Assembly (NCBI GenBank): GCA_965242855.1
Contig: OZ251509.1
Location: 35,286-99,285, forward strand
Length of the DNA: 64,000 nt
Reading direction: 5' to 3'
DNA from: Alphaproteobacteria bacterium
Lineage (GTDB): Bacteria > Pseudomonadota > Alphaproteobacteria > UBA828
In this document: in pieces, positions 2,255 through 53,880 of the stretch
Layout of the letters: every line of letters begins with the position of its first letter
How positions within the stretch are numbered: the first letter of the stretch is position 1
Made by a program: the position numbers and the translations under genes
The notes under the pieces: generated by a model
Database searches by the model: none
What the model was told of the DNA's origin: nothing
The model's input: the letters and a program-made list of their open reading frames with translations, nothing else

Positions 2255-4672
2255 TCAATCGCCGCCGTGATCGGCGATCAGCACCTCGCGTTTGCCGACA
2301 TGGTTGGCTTGGCCCACCACGCCCTCGCTCTCCATCCGCTCGACGATGCGGGCGGCGCGGTTGTAGCCGATCTGGAGGTGGCGCTGGATGAAGCTGGTCG
2401 AGGCCTTCCGTTCGGCCGCCACGAGCGCCACCGCCCGATCGTAGAGCGGGTCGCCGTCGGCGTCCTCACCGCCCAGCGCGGCGGCGGCGGATTCGGGCTC
2501 CTCGGTGACGCCCGCGACGTAGTGCGGTGGCCCGCTGGCGCGCAGGAAGTCGGTCACACGCTCGACCTCGGCGTCGGAGACGAACGGCCCGTGGACCCGG
2601 CTCAGGCGCCCGCCGGCCCCGAGATAGAGCATGTCGCCCTGGCCCAGCAGCTGTTCGGCGCCGGACTCGCCCAGGATGGTGCGGCTGTCGATCTTGGAAG
2701 TGACCTGGAAGCTGATCCGCGTCGGGAAGTTGGCCTTGATCGTGCCGGTGATGACGTCGACCGACGGGCGCTGGGTCGCCATGATCAGGTGGATGCCGGC
2801 GGCCCGCGCCATCTGCGCGAGCCTCTGGACGGCGCCCTCGATGTCCTTGCCGGCGACCAGCATCAGGTCGGCCATCTCGTCGACCACGATGACGATGTAG
2901 GGCATCGGCTCGAGGGCGAGGTCGAATTCCTCGTGGATCGGCGCGCCGGTCTCCTCGTCGATTCCGGTGTGGACCCGCCGGGTCAGGCGCTCGCCCTTGG
3001 CGCGGGCTTCGGCGAGCCGCTCGTTGTAGCCGGAGATGTTGCGCACGCCCAGCTTGGACATCGCCTGGTAGCGGCTTTCCATCTCGCGCACGGCCCATTT
3101 GAGGGCCACCACCGCCTTGGCCGGCTCGGTGACGACCGGCGCGAGCAGGTGGGGGATGTCGTCGTACACCGAGAGCTCAAGCATCTTCGGGTCGATCAGG
3201 ATCAGCTTGCACCGGTCCGGCGGCATCCGGTACAGGAGCGAGAGGATCATGCTGTTGATCGCCACCGACTTGCCGGAGCCGGTGGTGCCGGCGACGAGCA
3301 GGTGCGGCATCCGCGACAGGTCGGCGACCACGGGTTTGCCGCCGATGTCCTTGCCGAGGGCGAGCGTGAGCCTGGAGGCGGTGCTTTCGTAGCCGTCGCT
3401 GGCCAGCAGCGCGCGCAGCAACACGGTCTCACGCCGGCTGTTGGGCAGTTCGATGCCGATTACGCTGCGTCCCGGAATCGTCGCCGCCCGCACCGAGATC
3501 GCGCTCATCGAGCGGGCGATGTCGTCGGCGAGCCCGATCACCCGCGAGGTCCGCGTTCCCGGCTGCGGCTCGAGTTCGTAGAGGGTGACGACCGGCCCCG
3601 GCCTGATCTGGGTGATCTCGCCGAAGACCTTGAAATCCTCGAGCACCGAGACGAGCATCTCGGCGTTCTGCCGGAGCGCGTCGGCGGAGGCTTCGGGCGC
3701 TGCGGGTGGCGCGTCCGGCTCGACCAGCAGGGCCAGCGGCGGCAGCGTGTATTCCGGCTCGCCTTCGAGGCCGAGGGTCTTCTGGCTCTCCGCGCGGGCG
3801 CGTTTGCCGGGTTTCACCGGGCGCGGGCGCTCTACCGGCCGCGGCGCGTCGACGCCGTCCGGGTTCGACCGGGCGGAGGCGGCGTCCTCCACCGGGTCGA
3901 GGAGCCGCGGCTCGCTGCGCTGCCTGCCCGCCAGCGCGGGCTCGCCCACCGGCGCGGGCGCGTCCGCCTCCGCGTCTGCCGCTTCCGCGGCCGGGACGCC
4001 GCGCCGGACGCGGTGGCGGCGGAGGGCGCCTGCGGTGCCGCGCGCCGTTCGCCCGGCCGCCCGGTGGAAGCCCCGTAGCAGCGCCCGCCATTCCCGCCAG
4101 GGCACGCCGAGGGCGCCGACCAGGGCCAGCGCGGCAGCGGCGAGAAACACCGCGCCCGCGCCGCCGGCGCCCAGGGAGTCGCCCACCGCGGCCAGCAGCG
4201 TCCCGCCGGCGACGCCGCCCGCGCCCGCGGCGATCGGCCAGCTCGGGGCGCCGAGCGCTGCGCAGCCCACCGCCGCGAGGAGCACGGCCAAAGGCGCCAG
4301 AGCGATGCGCGCCGCCGGCAGCGAAAGCCCCCGATGGCTCAGCAGCGCCCAGGACCACGCCGCCAGGATCAGCGGCGGCAGGGCGGCGGCGAGGCCGAGC
4401 CACTGGAGCAGGAGGTCGGCCGCGTAGGACCCCGGGCGCCCGATCAGATTGGCCGCCTCGCCTTCCGCCGCGGTGTTGAAGGAAGGATCGGCCGACGAAT
4501 AGGTCATCAGCGCCGCGCCGAGGACTCCGGCCAGGACCGCCAGCGCGAGCCCGGCCGTCTCGCCCAGCCGCCGCGCCAGGAAGGCGCCCGACCCCGCCGG
4601 CAACAGCGACGTCGCCCCGCCGCCAGACGCAATCACCCTTTCCTCCACGGCGTTACGCGAATCCCTTCTCAC
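2255..4672 (-). CDS. ftsK: DNA translocase FtsK
   Basis: N-terminal membrane segments and a Pro/Ala-rich linker. Motor domain with Walker [20 protein letters not shown] and Walker [12 protein letters not shown]-terminal gamma wHTH ([24 protein letters not shown]). Confidence 0.97.
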
Positions 4673-4765: not shown

Positions 4766-6487
4766 ATGCGCGTGGGATATCGCGCCTTGGCGGCGGTGGC
4801 GGTCGCGGTGCTGGCGGTGGCCGGGGCGCTCTCGCCTTCGGACGCCGCCCGGGCCGGGCGCGGCGACGACGGCCATCTCCGCATCCATTACTGGCAGGCG
4901 CCGTCCACCCTCAATCCCTACCTGTCCGGCGGCACCAAGGACCGGGAGGCGGCCTCGCTGGTGCTCGAACCGCTGGCCCGCTACGACGACGAGGGCCGCA
5001 TGGTGCCGGCGCTCGCCGCCGTCGTCCCGACGATCGAGAACGGCGGCGTCGCGGCCGACCTGCGGTCCGTCACCTGGACGCTGAAGCGCGGGGTCGTCTG
5101 GTCCGACGGCACGCCGTTCACCGCCGCGGATGTGGTCTTCACCGGCGAATACTGCCTGCGCGCGGCGACGGGCTGCAACGCGGCTTCCAGCTTCGCCGAC
5201 GTGACGACGCTGGAGGCCCTCGACGGCCGCACCGTGCGGATCGGGTTCGGCGTACCCAAGCCGTTCCCCTACGGGCCGTTCGTCGGCGCCGTCTCGCCGA
5301 TCCTCCAGAAGGCCCAGTTCGAAGGCTGTCTCGAGGCCGGCTCCTGCGCGGCGGCGAATTCCCGCCCCGTCGGCACGGGACCCTTCAAGGTCGATGCGTT
5401 CCGCGCCAATGACGGCATCGACCTATCGGCCAACGCGCGCTACCGCGCGCCCGGCAAGCCGGCCTTCGCCACGGTCGCGTTCCAGGGCGGCGGCGACGCC
5501 GCATCGGCCGCGCGCGCCGCGCTCGTGACCGGGGAGGCCGACTACGCCTGGAACCTCCAGGTCGCGCCGGAAGCGCTGGCGCGGATGGCCGCCGCAGGCA
5601 AGGGGACCGTCCTCACCGGTTTCGCGACGCTGGTCGAGCGCCTCGTGCTCAACCTGACCGACGACGACGCGCGCCTCGGGCCGGACAGGCGCTCGCTCTA
5701 CCTGGACGGCGCCAACCCCCATCTCTTCCTGGCGGACCCGGCGGTGCGCCGGGCGCTGTCCCTCGCCCTCGACCGCCGGGTGCTGGTCGAGGCCGGATAC
5801 GGCGCTGCCGGCCGGCCCGCCTGCAACATCCTGCCGGCGCCCGCGGCCTATGCGTCCACCGCCAACGACGCCTGCCTCGTCCAGGACGTCGACGCGGCGA
5901 ACCGCCTCCTCGACGCGGCGGGCTGGCTGCCCGGCGCCGACGGCGTGCGTGCGAAGGACGGCGAGCGCCTCTCCCTCCTCTTCCAGACCTCCACCAACGC
6001 CGTGCGCCAGGAGACCCAGGCCCTGATCCGGGGGATGTGGGCGCGCATCGGGGTGGAGACGGCGCTGCGCGACATCGACGCGGCGGTGTTCTTCGGCGGC
6101 GACCCGGCGCGCCCCGACACGCACGGGAAATTTTATGCCGACGCGCAGATGTATGCCGACGGTTTTCGGGGGACCGACCCCGAATCCTATCTGGCCTACT
6201 GGACCTGCGCGGAGATGCCGGGCCCGGAGAACCGGTGGCTCGGCACCAACGTCCCGCGCTTCTGCGACCCGGCCTACGACGCGCTGGCGGCGCGGCTGGC
6301 GCGCACCGCGCCCCTGGCGGAGCGCGCCGCCCTCGCCCGACGGATGAACGACCTCCTCGTCGCCGACGGCTCTACGATCCCGCTCGTCTGGCGGGCCCGC
6401 ATCTCCGCGCGTTCGAACACCCTCCTGGGCGTGCGCATGAACCCGTGGGATTCGGAACTGTGGAACGCCGCTGACTGGCACCGCTGA
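4766..6487 (+). CDS. ABC transporter substrate-binding protein, family 5 (peptide/nickel type), orphan
   Basis: GGAGGAG RBS 7 nt upstream of the ATG. Signal peptide. Family-5 SBP-like sequence (LNPYLSGGTKD..., VTWTLKRGVVWSDGTPFTAADVVFT). No permease or ATPase genes adjacent. Confidence 0.85.
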   Translation: MRVGYRALAAVAVAVLAVAGALSPSDAARAGRGDDGHLRIHYWQAPSTLNPYLSGGTKDREAASLVLEPLARYDDEGRMVPALAAVVPTIENGGVAADLRSVTWTLKRGVVWSDGTPFTAADVVFTGEYCLRAATGCNAASSFADVTTLEALDGRTVRIGFGVPKPFPYGPFVGAVSPILQKAQFEGCLEAGSCAAANSRPVGTGPFKVDAFRANDGIDLSANARYRAPGKPAFATVAFQGGGDAASAARAALVTGEADYAWNLQVAPEALARMAAAGKGTVLTGFATLVERLVLNLTDDDARLGPDRRSLYLDGANPHLFLADPAVRRALSLALDRRVLVEAGYGAAGRPACNILPAPAAYASTANDACLVQDVDAANRLLDAAGWLPGADGVRAKDGERLSLLFQTSTNAVRQETQALIRGMWARIGVETALRDIDAAVFFGGDPARPDTHGKFYADAQMYADGFRGTDPESYLAYWTCAEMPGPENRWLGTNVPRFCDPAYDALAARLARTAPLAERAALARRMNDLLVADGSTIPLVWRARISARSNTLLGVRMNPWDSELWNAADWHR

Positions 6488-6503
6488 CGCGGCGGCCCGC
6501 CGA

Positions 6504-6968
6504 TCAGGCTCGGCACACGTTTCTCCTGCCGAGCAACTTCCTATGCGCGCGCGTGAATTTGTCGCTTTGCGACGTCGAGTAGACGGCGCCTTGCGGATTG
6601 TCGATTAACGCGCGGTTCCCGAAATCCCGGTGAAGATCACCGTCGTCGGAATACAGAAAGCGAGCACCGCTGACTTGCGCCAGAGCGATGACGTGCGGAT
6701 CGTTCGACTGACATGACGCTGTCTCTTCGAGCATTCGGGTTCTATCGTCGATCTCGTGATCATCGAATCGCGTGAACCGTCCCGCCCGCTGAGCTTGCCC
6801 CCGCCATTCCCGGAAGGCGTGATTCTGGTCCAGCTCCCGAAGCTGTTCGCCGCCACCGACAAGTCTGCCGTTTCCCGCGGTGAACCACTCGAAGAACTTC
6901 TTGCCGGCTTCCGGACGATCATTCCCAAACACCTTGTGCACGACGCTGGCGTCGAGGATCGCGCACAT
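6504..6968 (-). CDS. PIN-like nuclease-fold protein (DUF4411-like layout), second gene of the ATPase operon
   Basis: N-terminal ILDASV (D6). Acidic E41/E45. NDPHVIALAQVSGARFLYSDDGDLHRDF (D90, D108/D109/D111) matches the PIN pattern D..iA.A...ga.l.t.D.d. The ATG abuts the ATPase TAG stop with 0-nt spacer. GC is visibly below the flanks. Confidence 0.6.
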   Translation of the reverse strand: MCAILDASVVHKVFGNDRPEAGKKFFEWFTAGNGRLVGGGEQLRELDQNHAFREWRGQAQRAGRFTRFDDHEIDDRTRMLEETASCQSNDPHVIALAQVSGARFLYSDDGDLHRDFGNRALIDNPQGAVYSTSQSDKFTRAHRKLLGRRNVCRA

Positions 6969-8270
6969 CTATAAGCCTAACGACCGGCGCGTTTCTTCCA
7001 TGAAGAACGCCCTGTAGCTTGGTGGCGCACCCAGAACGTTCCCCTGCTCGTCCAGGCGCAGGGAATGGATGCAGACGTCCAGATCGCCGCGCTCGAAGTA
7101 GAGAATCGAGACGTCCTCCGGTTTCAGCGCCGCCTTGCCGTCGCGGACGTCCATGCGCACCCGGTCGAGCAGATGGTCGCTGTGAGTCTCGACCACCAGC
7201 TGGCGCTTCGGCGCGGCGATGCGGCAGAACAGGCTCCCAAGGGCGGCCTGAGCGCTCGGGTGGAGATGCACCTCCGGCTGCTGCAACAGGAACATCGGCG
7301 GCGCATTGCCGCGCAGCAACTCGGTGACGATAGGCAGCGCTTGGCTGACCCCGTAGCCGACGTCGATCAGGTTCCTCCGCAGCCCCTTGGACCTGCTCCC
7401 GTATTTCCTGATCTGTAGCTGGAAGGGTTCGCTTTGCTTCTTGCCGAGAGGTCGGACCGATATTTCATCGAACAGACCGGCGTCCTGCCCGAATTCCTCA
7501 AGCGTCTTCTTGAGTCGCTGCCACGCATTCTCCTCCTCGAAGCGAATACTGGCGAGATACATCGGTATGTAATAACCCTCGGAATCCCGCGTCGGACGCG
7601 AGGGGTTGTAGGTTCGATGTGGCTTGGAGCGGATCGGCGCGCTTGCATACGGCTTTTCACCAGAATAATGGCGGAGCACAGATTCGGAAACCTGCCTAAT
7701 CTGCTTCCAGTCACCGTCGCTGGGCTGACGTGGACCTTTCAACGCAGTAAACCGACGGTGGTATCTTCCAAAAATAAAATATTGTGCTATTGGATTATCG
7801 TCTGTCCACGAAACTCGGTCATTCCTCCACACACCCTTCGGCGTCTCATAAGTAATTTCTATGAATTGACCTTCCCGAAGGCGAAGTTTGATCTGTACGT
7901 GATTGCCTTTGTCGGTGATACGCCACTCTATGGGATGTGGTATAGCTCCTTTTCTTCCGAAGGTGATCTCGAAGTGTATGACGGCGTCTTTCTCCCCCTC
8001 TCGCGTAAAACCGAACCCCGCCTCGAACGTGTCGGCGCGGCCGCTCCTTCCTCCCCGGTAGTGGGTGATGTCGTCGAAGCTGCCGAGATCGTAGGGATCC
8101 TGCCTGAAGTCGGGGACGCCGCGCCCGGCCGCATCCCACAGCGCCCGGATCAGCGCCAGGAAGGACGTCTTCCCGGTGCTGTTCTCGCCGACGAGGAGGG
8201 TCAGCGGCGCCATGCGGGCCTCCTGCACCTCGCGGAAGCAGCGAAAATTCTCCAGTGTGATCAGGTCCAT
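6969..8270 (-). CDS. ABC/AAA-type ATPase (AAA_15/AAA_21-like) with DUF3696-like C-terminal domain
   Basis: [12 protein letters not shown]...[12 protein letters not shown] (Walker A, K34). Walker B/D-loop [13 protein letters not shown]-loop [14 protein letters not shown]-terminal ILYFERGD...[18 protein letters not shown] resembles DUF3696. Start set at the ATG at 8270 (GGAGGA 13 nt upstream). An in-frame ATG at 8336 would add 22 aa. The gene is AT-richer than its surroundings. Confidence 0.8.
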
Positions 8271-8367
8271 GGGGCGCCGTTCCTCCGTGCCGGCCGCACG
8301 CGCGGCGGTCTCGTTCGTCCATCCGCTTCGGTTCATGGGGCGCCCGTTCCTCTGTGCCGGCCGCACG
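8268..8367. repeat. Imperfect direct repeat (about 33 nt, period 66 nt) covering the ATPase start region
   Basis: catggggcgccgttcctccgtgccggccgcacg (8268-8300) recurs as catggggcgcccgttcctctgtgccggccgcacg (8334-8367). Each copy supplies an SD-like GAGGAA and an ATG on the minus strand. Confidence 0.7.
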
Positions 8368-8501
8368 GTACGAGGCCGCCGCTCCGCCCGCAAGGCGCCG
8401 CGCGGGTGCGCGGGCGCGTTGCGCGGCGGAGCGTTCCGGCGACAATGCGCCTGCTGGGCGCCTGCAAGCGGGCGCCGCCGCGCAAGGAGCGGAGAAATCC
8501 C

Positions 8502-9515
8502 ATGCTGGAGCGTTTCGAGCGCTACCCCCTCACCTTCGGCCCCACGCCCATCGAGCCGCTGGAGCGGCTGTCCGCGCATCTCGGCGGGCGGGTGGCGCTC
8601 TACGCCAAGCGCGAGGACTGCAACTCAGGCCTGGCCGGCGGCGGCAACAAGCTGCGCAAGCTGGAATACATCGTCCCCGACGCCATCGCCTCGAACGCCG
8701 ACACCCTCGTCACCATCGGCGGCGTCCAGTCGAACCACACCCGGCAGGTCGCCGCCGTCGCCGCGAAGCTCGGCATGAAATGCCGGCTGGTCCAGGAAAG
8801 CTGGGTGCCCTTCCCGGATGCCGTCTACGACCGGGTCGGCAACATCCTGATGAGCCGGGTGATGGGCGCCGAGATCGAACTGGTGGACGAAGGCTTCGAC
8901 ATCGGCCTCCGCGCGAGCTGGGAGCGGGCGATCGCGGAGGTGTGCGCGCAGGGCGGGAAGCCCTATCCCATCCCGGCGGGCGCGTCGGTCCATAAATACG
9001 GCGGGCTCGGCTATGTCGGCTTCGCCGAGGAGGTGCGGGCGCAGGAGGCGGCACTGGGCTTCGCCTTCGACTACGTCGTCGTCTGCACCGTCACCGGCTC
9101 GACCCACGCCGGGATGCTGGTGGGCTTCGCCAGGGACGGGCGCGGCGGGCGGGTGGTGGGCATCGACGCCTCCGGCACGCCGGCGCAAACCCGCGCGCAG
9201 GTCATGGACATCGCCCGCGGGACGGCGGCGCTGGTGGAGCTCGGGCGCGACATCGCCGACGAGGAGCTGGTCCTGATCGAGGACTACGCCCATCCCGCCT
9301 ACGGCGTGCCTTCGCCCGAAACCAACGAGGCGATCCGCCTCGCCGCCCGCCTGGAGGGGATGATGACCGACCCCGTCTATGAGGGGAAATCCATGCAGGG
9401 CACCATCGACCTCGTGCGCAAGGGCCATTTCCCCGAAGGGTCGAAGGTGCTCTACGCCCATCTCGGCGGCGTGCCGGCGATCAACGGCTACAGCTACCTC
9501 TATCGCGATGGCTGA
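8502..9515 (+). CDS. acdS: 1-aminocyclopropane-1-carboxylate deaminase
   Basis: AAGGAG RBS 12 nt upstream. [20 protein letters not shown]...[23 protein letters not shown]...[22 protein letters not shown]...DPVYEGKSM...LYAHLGG matches the AcdS family end to end. This includes the YE and L residues that separate ACC deaminases from D-cysteine desulfhydrases. Confidence 0.93.
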
Positions 9516-52760: not shown

Positions 52761-53880
52761 GCACGCCGGTGTAGCCGTAGACCCGGTTGTGCGAGATCTC
52801 GCCGTTGCAGAAGAAGCCGACCAGCGGCACGTCCCCCAGCGCGCCCTCGACCAGCTTCATCTCCCGGGAGGCCTCGCCGAACATGTTGGGGCCGCGGGCG
52901 AGGCACGAGAAATAGAGCCCGCCGCGCGGCGCGGCGCCGGCCCGGCGTTTCACGGACGCCACCATCCGCCCCAGATCCTCTTCCGCGGCGGCGGCGTCGC
53001 GGCGGCAGAAGCGCAGGGCGGCGCCTTGCTCGATAAGCGCGCTGATGCCGATCAGCTTCTTGTCCAGGTCGAAACCGACGATGTTGCGCACCGTGTAATC
53101 GCCGGTATCGCTCCCCGAAACCGGGAGCGCCGCGAAGATGCGGCCCGCCACCTGCCGCAGGTCGCGGGCCAGGGCTTCGCCGATCTCCTCCTTGAAGACG
53201 TCGAGGGCCGCCCGCCCGTCGAGTTCGGCGATGACGTTGGCCCGACAGGCCGTGACCTCGTGGCTCTCCCCGATCGGCGTACAGCTCTGGCTGAGCGCGG
53301 TGGAGACGGCAACCGTCTCGGCGAGCAGGACGCCCGACACCCCGCCTTGCGTCACGCCGCCGGCGATCTGCGCCGGGACCGAGCGCGCGGAGGAAACGCC
53401 GCCGACCAGGAACCCGTCCAGCGCCTCGGCGAGATCGGCCACGATGTCGGCGAGGCGCTGGTTGCGCGGGTCGGCGTGAACGATGCCGAAGCGGGACGGC
53501 GCGCGCGCGATCCAGGCGCCGTTGTCGCGGCTGAACGCGCCCGGATCGTCGCGAACGGTATCGAACACCCGGTAGCTCTCGGGTTCCATCTCGGCGATCA
53601 TGACGGCGGCGGCGGGCTCGTCGAAATATTCGCGCCCCGTGGCGCACACGCCGATGCCGACCGACCCCACCCATTCGTCCAGGCCCGTCGCGCGTTTCAG
53701 GCGGTCGAGCGCGGCGGGCAGTCCGTCGCCGATGGAGTCCGTGACGTAGACCAGCCCGAGCCCGCGCGGCGGCCGCGCCAGATCGAGCTGCGCGAGGCAC
53801 GCCTCGACGGCGGCTTCCCCGTCCGGCCCGCCGGCATGGGCGCACTGGAATCGCGTCATCGGCCGATCCTCCGGCTCCAT
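52744..53880 (-). CDS. FIST N/C-domain sensory protein
   Basis: Length and layout are typical of FIST_N plus FIST_C (GLVYVTD..., GFFCNGEISHNRVYGYTGVLTLF C-terminus). Confidence 0.7.
   Translation of the reverse strand: MEPEDRPMTRFQCAHAGGPDGEAAVEACLAQLDLARPPRGLGLVYVTDSIGDGLPAALDRLKRATGLDEWVGSVGIGVCATGREYFDEPAAAVMIAEMEPESYRVFDTVRDDPGAFSRDNGAWIARAPSRFGIVHADPRNQRLADIVADLAEALDGFLVGGVSSARSVPAQIAGGVTQGGVSGVLLAETVAVSTALSQSCTPIGESHEVTACRANVIAELDGRAALDVFKEEIGEALARDLRQVAGRIFAALPVSGSDTGDYTVRNIVGFDLDKKLIGISALIEQGAALRFCRRDAAAAEEDLGRMVASVKRRAGAAPRGGLYFSCLARGPNMFGEASREMKLVEGALGDVPLVGFFCNGEISHNRVYGYTGVLTLFS

Follow-up and report, generated by a model that had tools for sequence, protein, structure and literature searches.

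The window analysed here, a 64,000-nucleotide (nt) stretch of the alphaproteobacterial contig OZ251509.1, carries on its minus strand two adjacent genes that encode an ATP-binding cassette (ABC) ATPase of 433 amino acids (aa) and a stand-alone PIN-fold protein of 154 aa. This work deals with that gene pair, whose probable role, in our opinion, is defence against phages. A previous inspection of the letters (hereafter, the sequence-only reading) had described both open reading frames (ORFs), the absence of a spacer between the TAG stop of the first and the ATG of the second, and a composition richer in AT than that of the flanks, and the three descriptions turned out to be correct. In fact, the stop codon of the ATPase gene (6969-6971) abuts the start codon of the PIN gene (6966-6968), and the GC content of this islet is 0.50-0.62 across positions 6400-8200 versus about 0.72 on either side. 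The ATPase reading frame is open up to position 8579, and we have placed its start at 8270 (MDLITLENF), as in the homologues and in the gene called in L081, a 93% identical relative. The elements of the pair, in window coordinates, are the following:

6504-6968, minus strand: gene of the stand-alone PIN-fold protein (ORF, 154 aa), the presumed metal-dependent nuclease effector
6969-8270, minus strand: gene of the ABC ATPase (ORF, 433 aa, start MDLITLENF), the presumed sensor and regulator
6981-7022, minus strand: C-terminal helix of the ATPase (aa 417-430) with an FF-x-EE motif, a DUF3696-like tail; a helix in the model, and the presumed docking site of the PIN protein
7173-7190, minus strand: H-loop ETHSDH (aa 361-366); E361, T362, H363, S364, and D365 are invariant in an alignment of 58 homologues
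7257-7289, minus strand: non-canonical Walker B/D-loop (aa 328-338), invariant in the same 58 homologues
7341-7364, minus strand: ABC signature-like motif DVGYGVSQ (aa 303-310), invariant in that alignment
7500-8000, minus strand: variable beta-rich insert (approximately aa 90-260), the most AT-rich stretch (GC 0.50-0.53), where the family consensus is undefined; the presumed trigger-sensing region
8163-8189, minus strand: Walker A/P-loop GENSTGKTS (aa 28-36); G28, E29, N30, G33, K34, and T35 are invariant in the 58 homologues

The two proteins

The PIN-like fold that the sequence-only reading had attributed to the 154-aa protein was borne out by structural modelling. The AlphaFold model, built on an alignment of 83 sequences, reached a pLDDT of 93.2 and a pTM of 0.88 and shows alternating strands and helices, and its best Foldseek matches in the PDB were nearly all PIN domains, i.e., those of Nob1, VapC, FitB, and HARP (protein-only RNase P). 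The Pfam PIN family (PF01850) matches the window protein with 19.2 bits, under the cut-off of 23.6, and 74 of the 83 family members match it at E<=1. A sequence search of the protein against the PDB returned chance-level matches only, and an exact look-up of its sequence retrieved no identical record. In 136 diverse representatives that share 34-57% identity with the window protein, residues D6, E45, D90, D109, and D115 are conserved at 97-100% (D115 at 99%), and S88 falls within the same range. The acidic set that had been proposed from the letters is therefore sustained for D6, E45, D90, and D109 but not for E41 and D108, and D115, absent from that list, has to be added to it. According to the model and the alignment, the protein has a PIN fold with a predicted intact D-E-D-D(+D) metal site.

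This protein belongs to a large family, for which clustering at 50% identity gives 1910 clusters at E<=1e-3 and 1347 at E<=1e-10. Each of the best 150 of the 1910 representatives contains a single PIN match, and nearly all of them are about 150-170 aa long. Three additional residues, C2, H92 (within SNDPH), and C152, encoded at 6963-6965, 6693-6695, and 6513-6515, respectively, are conserved at 96-100% in the family; C2 directly follows the initiator methionine and C152 lies three residues from the C-terminus, and these residues may bind an additional metal ion or link both termini through a disulphide.

The ATPase matches the Pfam families AAA_21 (4e-20) and AAA_15 (4e-19). Its AlphaFold model (pLDDT 74.8) contains an ABC head, resembling those of Rad50/SMC as well as the structures of PtuA, OLD, and GajA, and ends in the helix of aa 417-430. 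The DUF3696-like tail announced by the sequence-only reading can be recognized in this helix and in a shared FFxxE motif, but the corresponding Pfam match (aa 382-416, E 0.003, 18.2 bits) falls under the gathering cut-off. Among the PADLOC models, the best match is NsnB (4.7e-45, 152.9 bits, full length), followed by PDC-M55A (1.9e-31, full length), HEC-03B (2.1e-26), and AriA (8.5e-23), and there are weaker matches to many GajA, PtuA, and Old models. NsnB is a component of Menshen (NsnA-NsnB-NsnC), a system reported by Millman et al. 2022. The proposed kinship with defence ATPases was thus confirmed, and the search of PADLOC gave a divided outcome, with matches for the ATPase to NsnB, PDC-M55A, and HEC-03B and no match to any model for its partner. 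PHROGs and NCBIfam provided no useful name for either protein.

The Walker A motif and the H-loop ETHSDH noticed in the sequence are invariant, as listed above, and GENSTGKT is present in 60 of 66 related loci. The signature DVGYGVSQ appears in 61 of these 66 loci, and the forms DVGFGVSQ and DVGHGLSQ are found in the HEC-03 and PDC-M55 ATPases; a GxG form of the signature has been described for NsnB (PMC12065111). The Walker B assigned from the letters is, however, non-canonical. In its LLQQPE sequence, Q330 and Q331 align with the EE of OLD and GajA (IEEPE) and with the DE of PtuA (IDEVD), and the hhQQ-PE pattern is present in 66/66 related loci, while the HEC-03 and PDC-M55 ATPases contain EQPE. 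This substitution suggests that hydrolysis could be slow or absent, or that E333 may act as the catalytic base.

The NWPExFFxxE tail is common to the window, HEC-03, and PDC-M55 ATPases. In Menshen, the N-terminal PIN-like domain of NsnC docks on the DUF3696 tail, and in the AlphaFold 3 models of NsnB4-NsnC2 the paired DUF3696 tails clamp this domain, which reportedly lacks catalytic residues in all NsnC proteins (PMC12065111). By analogy with those NsnB-NsnC models, we presume that the tail of the window ATPase has a similar docking role.

Distribution, context and decay of the pair

Scanning one genome per species yielded 453 loci, 80 of which were fetched, all of them from metagenome-assembled genomes. 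The homologues of both genes are syntenic, a point that the sequence-only reading had proposed to check: an ATPase gene lies directly upstream of the PIN gene and on the same strand in 78/80 loci, and of the two exceptions one is located at a contig end and the other (L068) has transposition-type genes in the place of the ATPase. The gap between both genes ranges from -17 to +23 nt and is mostly 0-4 nt. In addition, the pairwise distances of the ATPase and PIN sequences are correlated (Mantel r = 0.60), and none of 999 permutations attained such a value. No third gene is conserved across the 80 loci, and ParB-DUF262 is absent from the Pfam families listed for the 114 immediate neighbours (57 loci), a list that covers every family with at least two matches. 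By these comparisons, the ATPase and the PIN protein make up one strict two-gene module. The hosts are distributed among Alphaproteobacteria, Gammaproteobacteria, Acidobacteriota, Gemmatimonadota, Chloroflexota, Verrucomicrobiota, Latescibacterota, Binatia, Nitrospirota, Spirochaetota, Thermodesulfobacteriota, Entotheonella, and others.

The proximity to known defence genes, which the sequence-only reading had also proposed to check, holds for a part of the loci. The pair is located between HmaB and HmaC in 10 of the 80 loci, being the sole cargo between them in L023, but most loci lie amid housekeeping genes. The embedding between Hma genes is the context that Payne et al. used to discover the HEC systems (bioRxiv 10.1101/2024.01.29.577857). 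The recurrent neighbours other than housekeeping genes (57 loci) are HmaB methylases and HEC-01 ATPase/TOPRIM modules. In the Hma-embedded loci L005, L017, L022, and L057, more ABC ATPase modules follow downstream of the pair, i.e., HEC-01A/B-like genes and an AriAB- or NsnB-like 587-aa ATPase, so that ATPase-nuclease cargo appears stacked between HmaB and HmaC.

In the window, the pair is flanked by the following elements:

4766-6487, plus strand: SBP_bac_5 solute-binding protein (SBP) gene, convergent with the PIN gene
8271-8501: intergenic region between the ATPase gene and the PALP/acdS-like gene, with a GGAGGA ribosome-binding site and a tandem duplication
8502-9515, plus strand: PALP/ACC-deaminase-like (acdS-like) gene, divergent from the ATPase gene

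The foreign composition of the pair indicates that it was horizontally acquired. The sequence-only reading had gone further and spoken of a clean insertion; no empty site (SBP-acdS without the pair) was found, and this proposal draws its support solely from the GC composition. The scan of metagenomes with the SBP protein gave only homologues of <=63% identity with no adjoining acdS, and the three closest relatives all have the pair in the same acdS-SBP slot. The search for terminal repeats bounding the insertion produced short low-identity matches only, the best inverted pair being 25 nt long and 72% identical. A consensus scan for promoters and terminators over 6300-8700 detected nothing at the expected positions, and no sigma-70-like consensus in 8271-8501. 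The tandem duplication, of 67 nt (8264-8300 / 8330-8367), copies the ribosome-binding site, the ATG, and the first codons of the ATPase gene, so that another in-frame ATG, near 8336, offers a start 22 codons upstream. Both the window and L081 have this duplication, and L082 has a single copy. Elsewhere in the window, a stretch of 82% GC at 3800-4400, well over the window average, corresponds to a Pro/Ala/Arg-rich linker within an FtsK-like gene (2255-4672, minus strand), the sole tRNA is a tRNA-Val(CAC) at 52919-52995, and no Rfam family reached its gathering score over the whole window.

Among the three close relatives with the acdS-pair-SBP arrangement, the synonymous divergence (dS) is equal over the four genes (0.04-0.09), and the ratio of non-synonymous to synonymous divergence (dN/dS) is about 0.6 for the ATPase, 0.06 for the PIN protein, and 0.1-0.2 for the flanking genes. 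The value of the PIN gene points to purifying selection. The differences that separate the window ATPase from its 88-93% identical relatives cluster at aa 87-260, that is, in the variable, AT-rich, beta-rich insert. Several loci show signs of decay. In two assemblies of a close relative with the same acdS-pair-SBP context and an 88% identical ATPase (L082:5284-5760 and L083:1914-2390), a 1-nt deletion after approximately codon 134 of the PIN gene removes the last 20 residues or so, including the invariant C152, and leaves the catalytic core intact. The ATPase gene is frameshifted in L050:4589-5966, split by a gene of 428 aa on the opposite strand in L079:3259-5991, which resembles an insertion-sequence-type disruption, and replaced by transposition-like genes in L068:2800-6000, where an orphan PIN gene is left. 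A second, truncated PIN copy lies just downstream in L005:6595-6957. The fast change of the ATPase in its insert and this sporadic decay would be in keeping with a conflict system whose sensor evolves rapidly.

Since the PIN domains of Nob1 and of HARP, the protein-only RNase P, appear among the top structural matches, the pair could alternatively have a housekeeping or stress function in RNA processing, with a Nob1-like or RNase-P-like PIN protein and an ATPase partner, unrelated to any conflict with mobile elements. The mostly housekeeping neighbours and the vertical inheritance of the pair with its flanks among the closest relatives, deduced from the equal dS, agree with such a function. 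Nevertheless, a gene of this kind would hardly be expected to show a patchy distribution across many phyla, a foreign composition, a fast-evolving ATPase, and frequent pseudogenisation, nor to be found within Hma systems or, in some loci, alongside HEC-01 modules, and the homology of the ATPase is only to ATPases of conflict systems. We consider this explanation very improbable.

A toxin-antitoxin or addiction module deserves more attention. According to this proposal, a VapC-like PIN toxin would be silenced by the ATPase acting as a large antitoxin, and the pair would stabilise itself without a dedicated anti-phage role. The tight coupling of both genes, the nearest folds (the VapC and FitB toxins), the truncation of the PIN gene or loss of the ATPase in some lineages, and the fact that the pair is mostly a solitary islet amid housekeeping genes can all be read in this way, and HEC-03 is toxic when induced (bioRxiv 10.1101/2024.01.29.577857). 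But there is no small VapB-like antitoxin, its place upstream being taken by an ABC ATPase of 433 aa that has homology to defence ATPases; 10 of the 80 loci are inside Hma defence systems; and a search of 72,556 plasmids, the usual carriers of addiction modules, found no copy. Moreover, the closest characterised architecture defends against phages and needs both genes for it (bioRxiv 10.1101/2024.01.29.577857). An addiction module without an anti-phage role is in our judgement unlikely, although clearly less so than a function in RNA processing, and the toxin-antitoxin and anti-phage readings are not mutually exclusive.

Proposed function

We propose, with a probability of about 0.72, that the window pair is a horizontally acquired two-gene anti-phage module of the abortive-infection type, belonging to a class formed by a DUF3696-tailed ABC ATPase and a PIN nuclease. 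This proposal relies on the gene structure, on the conservation of folds and motifs, on the co-occurrence and tight coupling of both genes, on the homology of the ATPase to defence ATPases, and on the Hma embedding observed in some loci, together with the analogy to characterised systems.

Some results weigh against this anti-phage function. Most of the related loci, and the window itself, place the pair among housekeeping genes and outside defence islands, and no copy of the PIN family was found in 72,556 plasmids, 50,697 phage records, and 2.9 million viral contigs (IMG/VR). On the side of the nuclease, the Foldseek E-values of the PIN model are modest (about 2e-3), with TM-scores of 0.4-0.64, and the window PIN protein has no match to any PADLOC model, and none at E<=10 to that of the HEC-03 PIN. 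The HEC-03 PIN model matches 6 of the 83 family members, weakly (best E 0.003), and the profile-profile comparison of both PIN families with hhalign is not significant (probability 3.7%). Finally, the QQ of the Walker B could mean that the ATPase performs no ATP hydrolysis at all.

For an anti-phage module, we envisage the following mechanism, modelled on the AlphaFold 3 prediction of NsnB4-NsnC2 and on the solved Septu and PARIS complexes (PMC12065111); the tail-mediated complex, the nature of the trigger and of the substrate, and the abortive outcome are all inferred by analogy. The ATPase would oligomerise, and the C-terminal helical tails of the oligomer would hold the co-translated PIN protein inactive. 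The fast-evolving beta-rich insert would detect a product of the phage or one of its anti-defence proteins, and a nucleotide-dependent rearrangement would then free or activate the PIN nuclease. Because of the invariant QQ in the Walker B, this nucleotide step probably depends on ATP binding more than on rapid hydrolysis. The released nuclease would cut RNA (tRNA, rRNA, or mRNA) and halt the growth of the infected cell.

A more general idea, which we offer tentatively and hold to be rather doubtful, is that all the DUF3696-tailed ATPases clamp a PIN partner, that the active stand-alone PIN protein, as in this family and in HEC-03, represents the ancestral state, from which the inactive PIN adaptor and fused nuclease of Menshen would be derived, and that the QQ ATPase works as a switch operated by ATP binding, turning over little ATP or none. 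The evolutionary link within this idea is drawn neither in the Menshen paper (PMC12065111) nor in the HEC paper (bioRxiv 10.1101/2024.01.29.577857).

If the pair is confirmed as a defence system, it would add a large and taxonomically broad family (at least 1347 PIN clusters at 50% identity; 453 loci) that PADLOC-DB v2 misses. Since, in addition, the 80 fetched loci all come from uncultured lineages, the counts of defence systems in environmental bacteria, e.g., Latescibacterota, Binatia, Dehalococcoidia, Entotheonella, and Acidobacteriota, would be underestimates. With the pair, the control of a PIN nuclease by DUF3696-tailed ATPases could also be studied in a second, independent sequence family, and it would help to join HEC-03, PDC-M55, and Menshen in one mechanistic clade. 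It would not open a new category of immunity.

Comparison with known systems

The VapBC modules share with the window pair a PIN nuclease with the D-E-D-D set, VapC being one of the best structural matches. They differ in that the VapB antitoxin is replaced upstream by the 433-aa ATPase in 78/80 loci, and in that the window PIN sequence is too far from PF01850 to reach its cut-off. PARIS (AriA/AriB), Septu (PtuA/PtuB), Gabija (GajA/GajB), and OLD also combine a nuclease effector with an OLD-type ABC ATPase by which it is held or controlled. Nevertheless, these effectors are TOPRIM (AriB, C-terminus of GajA) or HNH (PtuB) enzymes, whereas the partner in the window is a PIN protein without matches to the AriB, PtuB, or GajA effector models, and their ATPases are distant (PADLOC E-values of 1e-9 to 1e-23) and have an acidic, canonical Walker B.

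The PADLOC candidate PDC-M55, whose reference locus we recovered from a Bacillus plasmid, is closer with regard to its ATPase, also of the DUF3696 type and also followed by an effector gene. Its partner is, however, a protein of about 350 aa from another family: the window PIN protein does not match PDC-M55B, and its hhalign comparison with a true PDC-M55B gave a probability of 0.2%. A literature search found no paper containing the term PDC-M55. With the NsnB model, the reference ATPases of HEC-03 and PDC-M55 reach some 190-200 bits. By such cross-scores, NsnB, HEC-03, PDC-M55, and the window ATPase constitute one DUF3696-tailed clade, whose members have in common the motifs DxGxGxSQ, xQPE-x-HLHP, and E(T/S)HS and the C-terminal FFxxE. 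The bona fide HEC-03 ATPase itself reaches 198.6 bits on the NsnB model, and therefore a match to NsnB marks the clade and not the system.

This consideration bears on the relationship with Menshen. By its ABC fold, its GxG signature, its non-canonical Walker B, and its C-terminal DUF3696-like helix, the window ATPase belongs to the NsnB type, and its partner has the fold that the NsnB tails are predicted to clamp. Menshen has three genes and the window system two: NsnA (ParB-DUF262 plus ParBDB) has no counterpart next to the window pair, where the neighbour is the PALP gene on the opposite strand, and in NsnC an inactive PIN domain is fused with a nuclease/toxin domain at the C-terminus, whereas the window partner consists of one PIN domain only, whose catalytic residues are conserved. 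One could still imagine a degenerate Menshen, which has lost the NsnA sensor and the C-terminal nuclease of NsnC, leaving a non-functional NsnB and a PIN stub. NsnB being the best full-length PADLOC match of the ATPase, the PIN-like start of NsnC that docks on the DUF3696 tail (PMC12065111), and the weak matches of the NsnC model to 3 of the 83 PIN-family members would be in line with it. This origin is nonetheless highly improbable, and we have rejected it. The 80 loci contain no conserved third gene, DUF262 is not among the most frequent Pfam families of the 114 immediate neighbours in 57 of them, and by this count no DUF262/NsnA gene accompanies the pair. Besides, the stand-alone PIN proteins, about 155 aa long, make up a coherent family (1347 clusters) and retain the catalytic residues that all NsnC PIN-like domains reportedly lack (PMC12065111). 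The dN/dS of the PIN gene (0.06) points to purifying selection, and the HEC-03 ATPase also scores highly on the NsnB model. The Menshen paper, which does not mention HEC-03, was unable to find pairs devoid of NsnA because its search was seeded on DUF262 (PMC12065111).

Coming back to an anti-phage module, its closest counterpart is HEC-03, which consists of an ABC ATPase and a VapC-like PIN protein, is embedded between Hma genes, and protects Escherichia coli from phages; both genes are needed, and the system is toxic on induction (bioRxiv 10.1101/2024.01.29.577857). Using its PADLOC models (PDLC04147 for the PIN protein and PDLC04148 for the ATPase), we have found that an Aeromonas pAsa9-like plasmid encodes a "DUF3696 domain-containing protein", whose score with the ATPase model is 444.6 bits (positions 1-455 of 458), followed by a protein of 177 aa with 80.6 bits on the PIN model. 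The reference locus L164, on an Aeromonas plasmid, contains a DUF3696 ATPase gene and then a PIN gene. An "RNA ligase family protein" is encoded directly downstream of the PIN gene in L164:5916-6617 and L166:5891-6583 (Aeromonas and Azotobacter plasmids), which hints at an RNA-repair accessory.

Several features separate HEC-03 from the window pair. The HEC-03 ATPase model, which ranks third after NsnB and PDC-M55A, gives the window ATPase 91 bits, divided between two stretches, so that this ATPase is not a close member; the Walker B is EQPE in HEC-03 and QQPE in the window family; the HEC-03 PIN protein has 177 aa and four invariant cysteines, whereas that of the window has 154 aa and the invariant C2, H92, and C152; and the RNA ligase gene of the plasmid HEC-03 loci does not accompany the window family. 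Both systems nonetheless have the same architecture, i.e., two co-directional genes, the first for a DUF3696-tailed ABC ATPase and the second for a small stand-alone PIN protein whose acidic residues are intact, and their ATPases are homologous over the full length (hhalign probability 99.85%, E 1e-30, 25% identity). In addition, some pairs of the window family also lie between HmaB and HmaC, although the window pair has housekeeping flanks.

The sequence-only reading had considered the combination of an ATPase and a PIN-like protein as unnamed and perhaps as a new effector swap, and this claim had to be abandoned: HEC-03 is a validated pair with the same gene order, and OLD-ABC ATPases with PIN endoRNases are known as backup effectors of BREX and of BREX-related (DUF499) systems (PMC12839542). 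As this pairing had already been described and validated in HEC-03, the window pair does not represent a new type of system. Its sequence places it instead as a divergent family, with a predicted function and undetected as a system by PADLOC-DB v2, within the known class of which HEC-03 is the validated example and the NsnB-NsnC core of Menshen is a relative.

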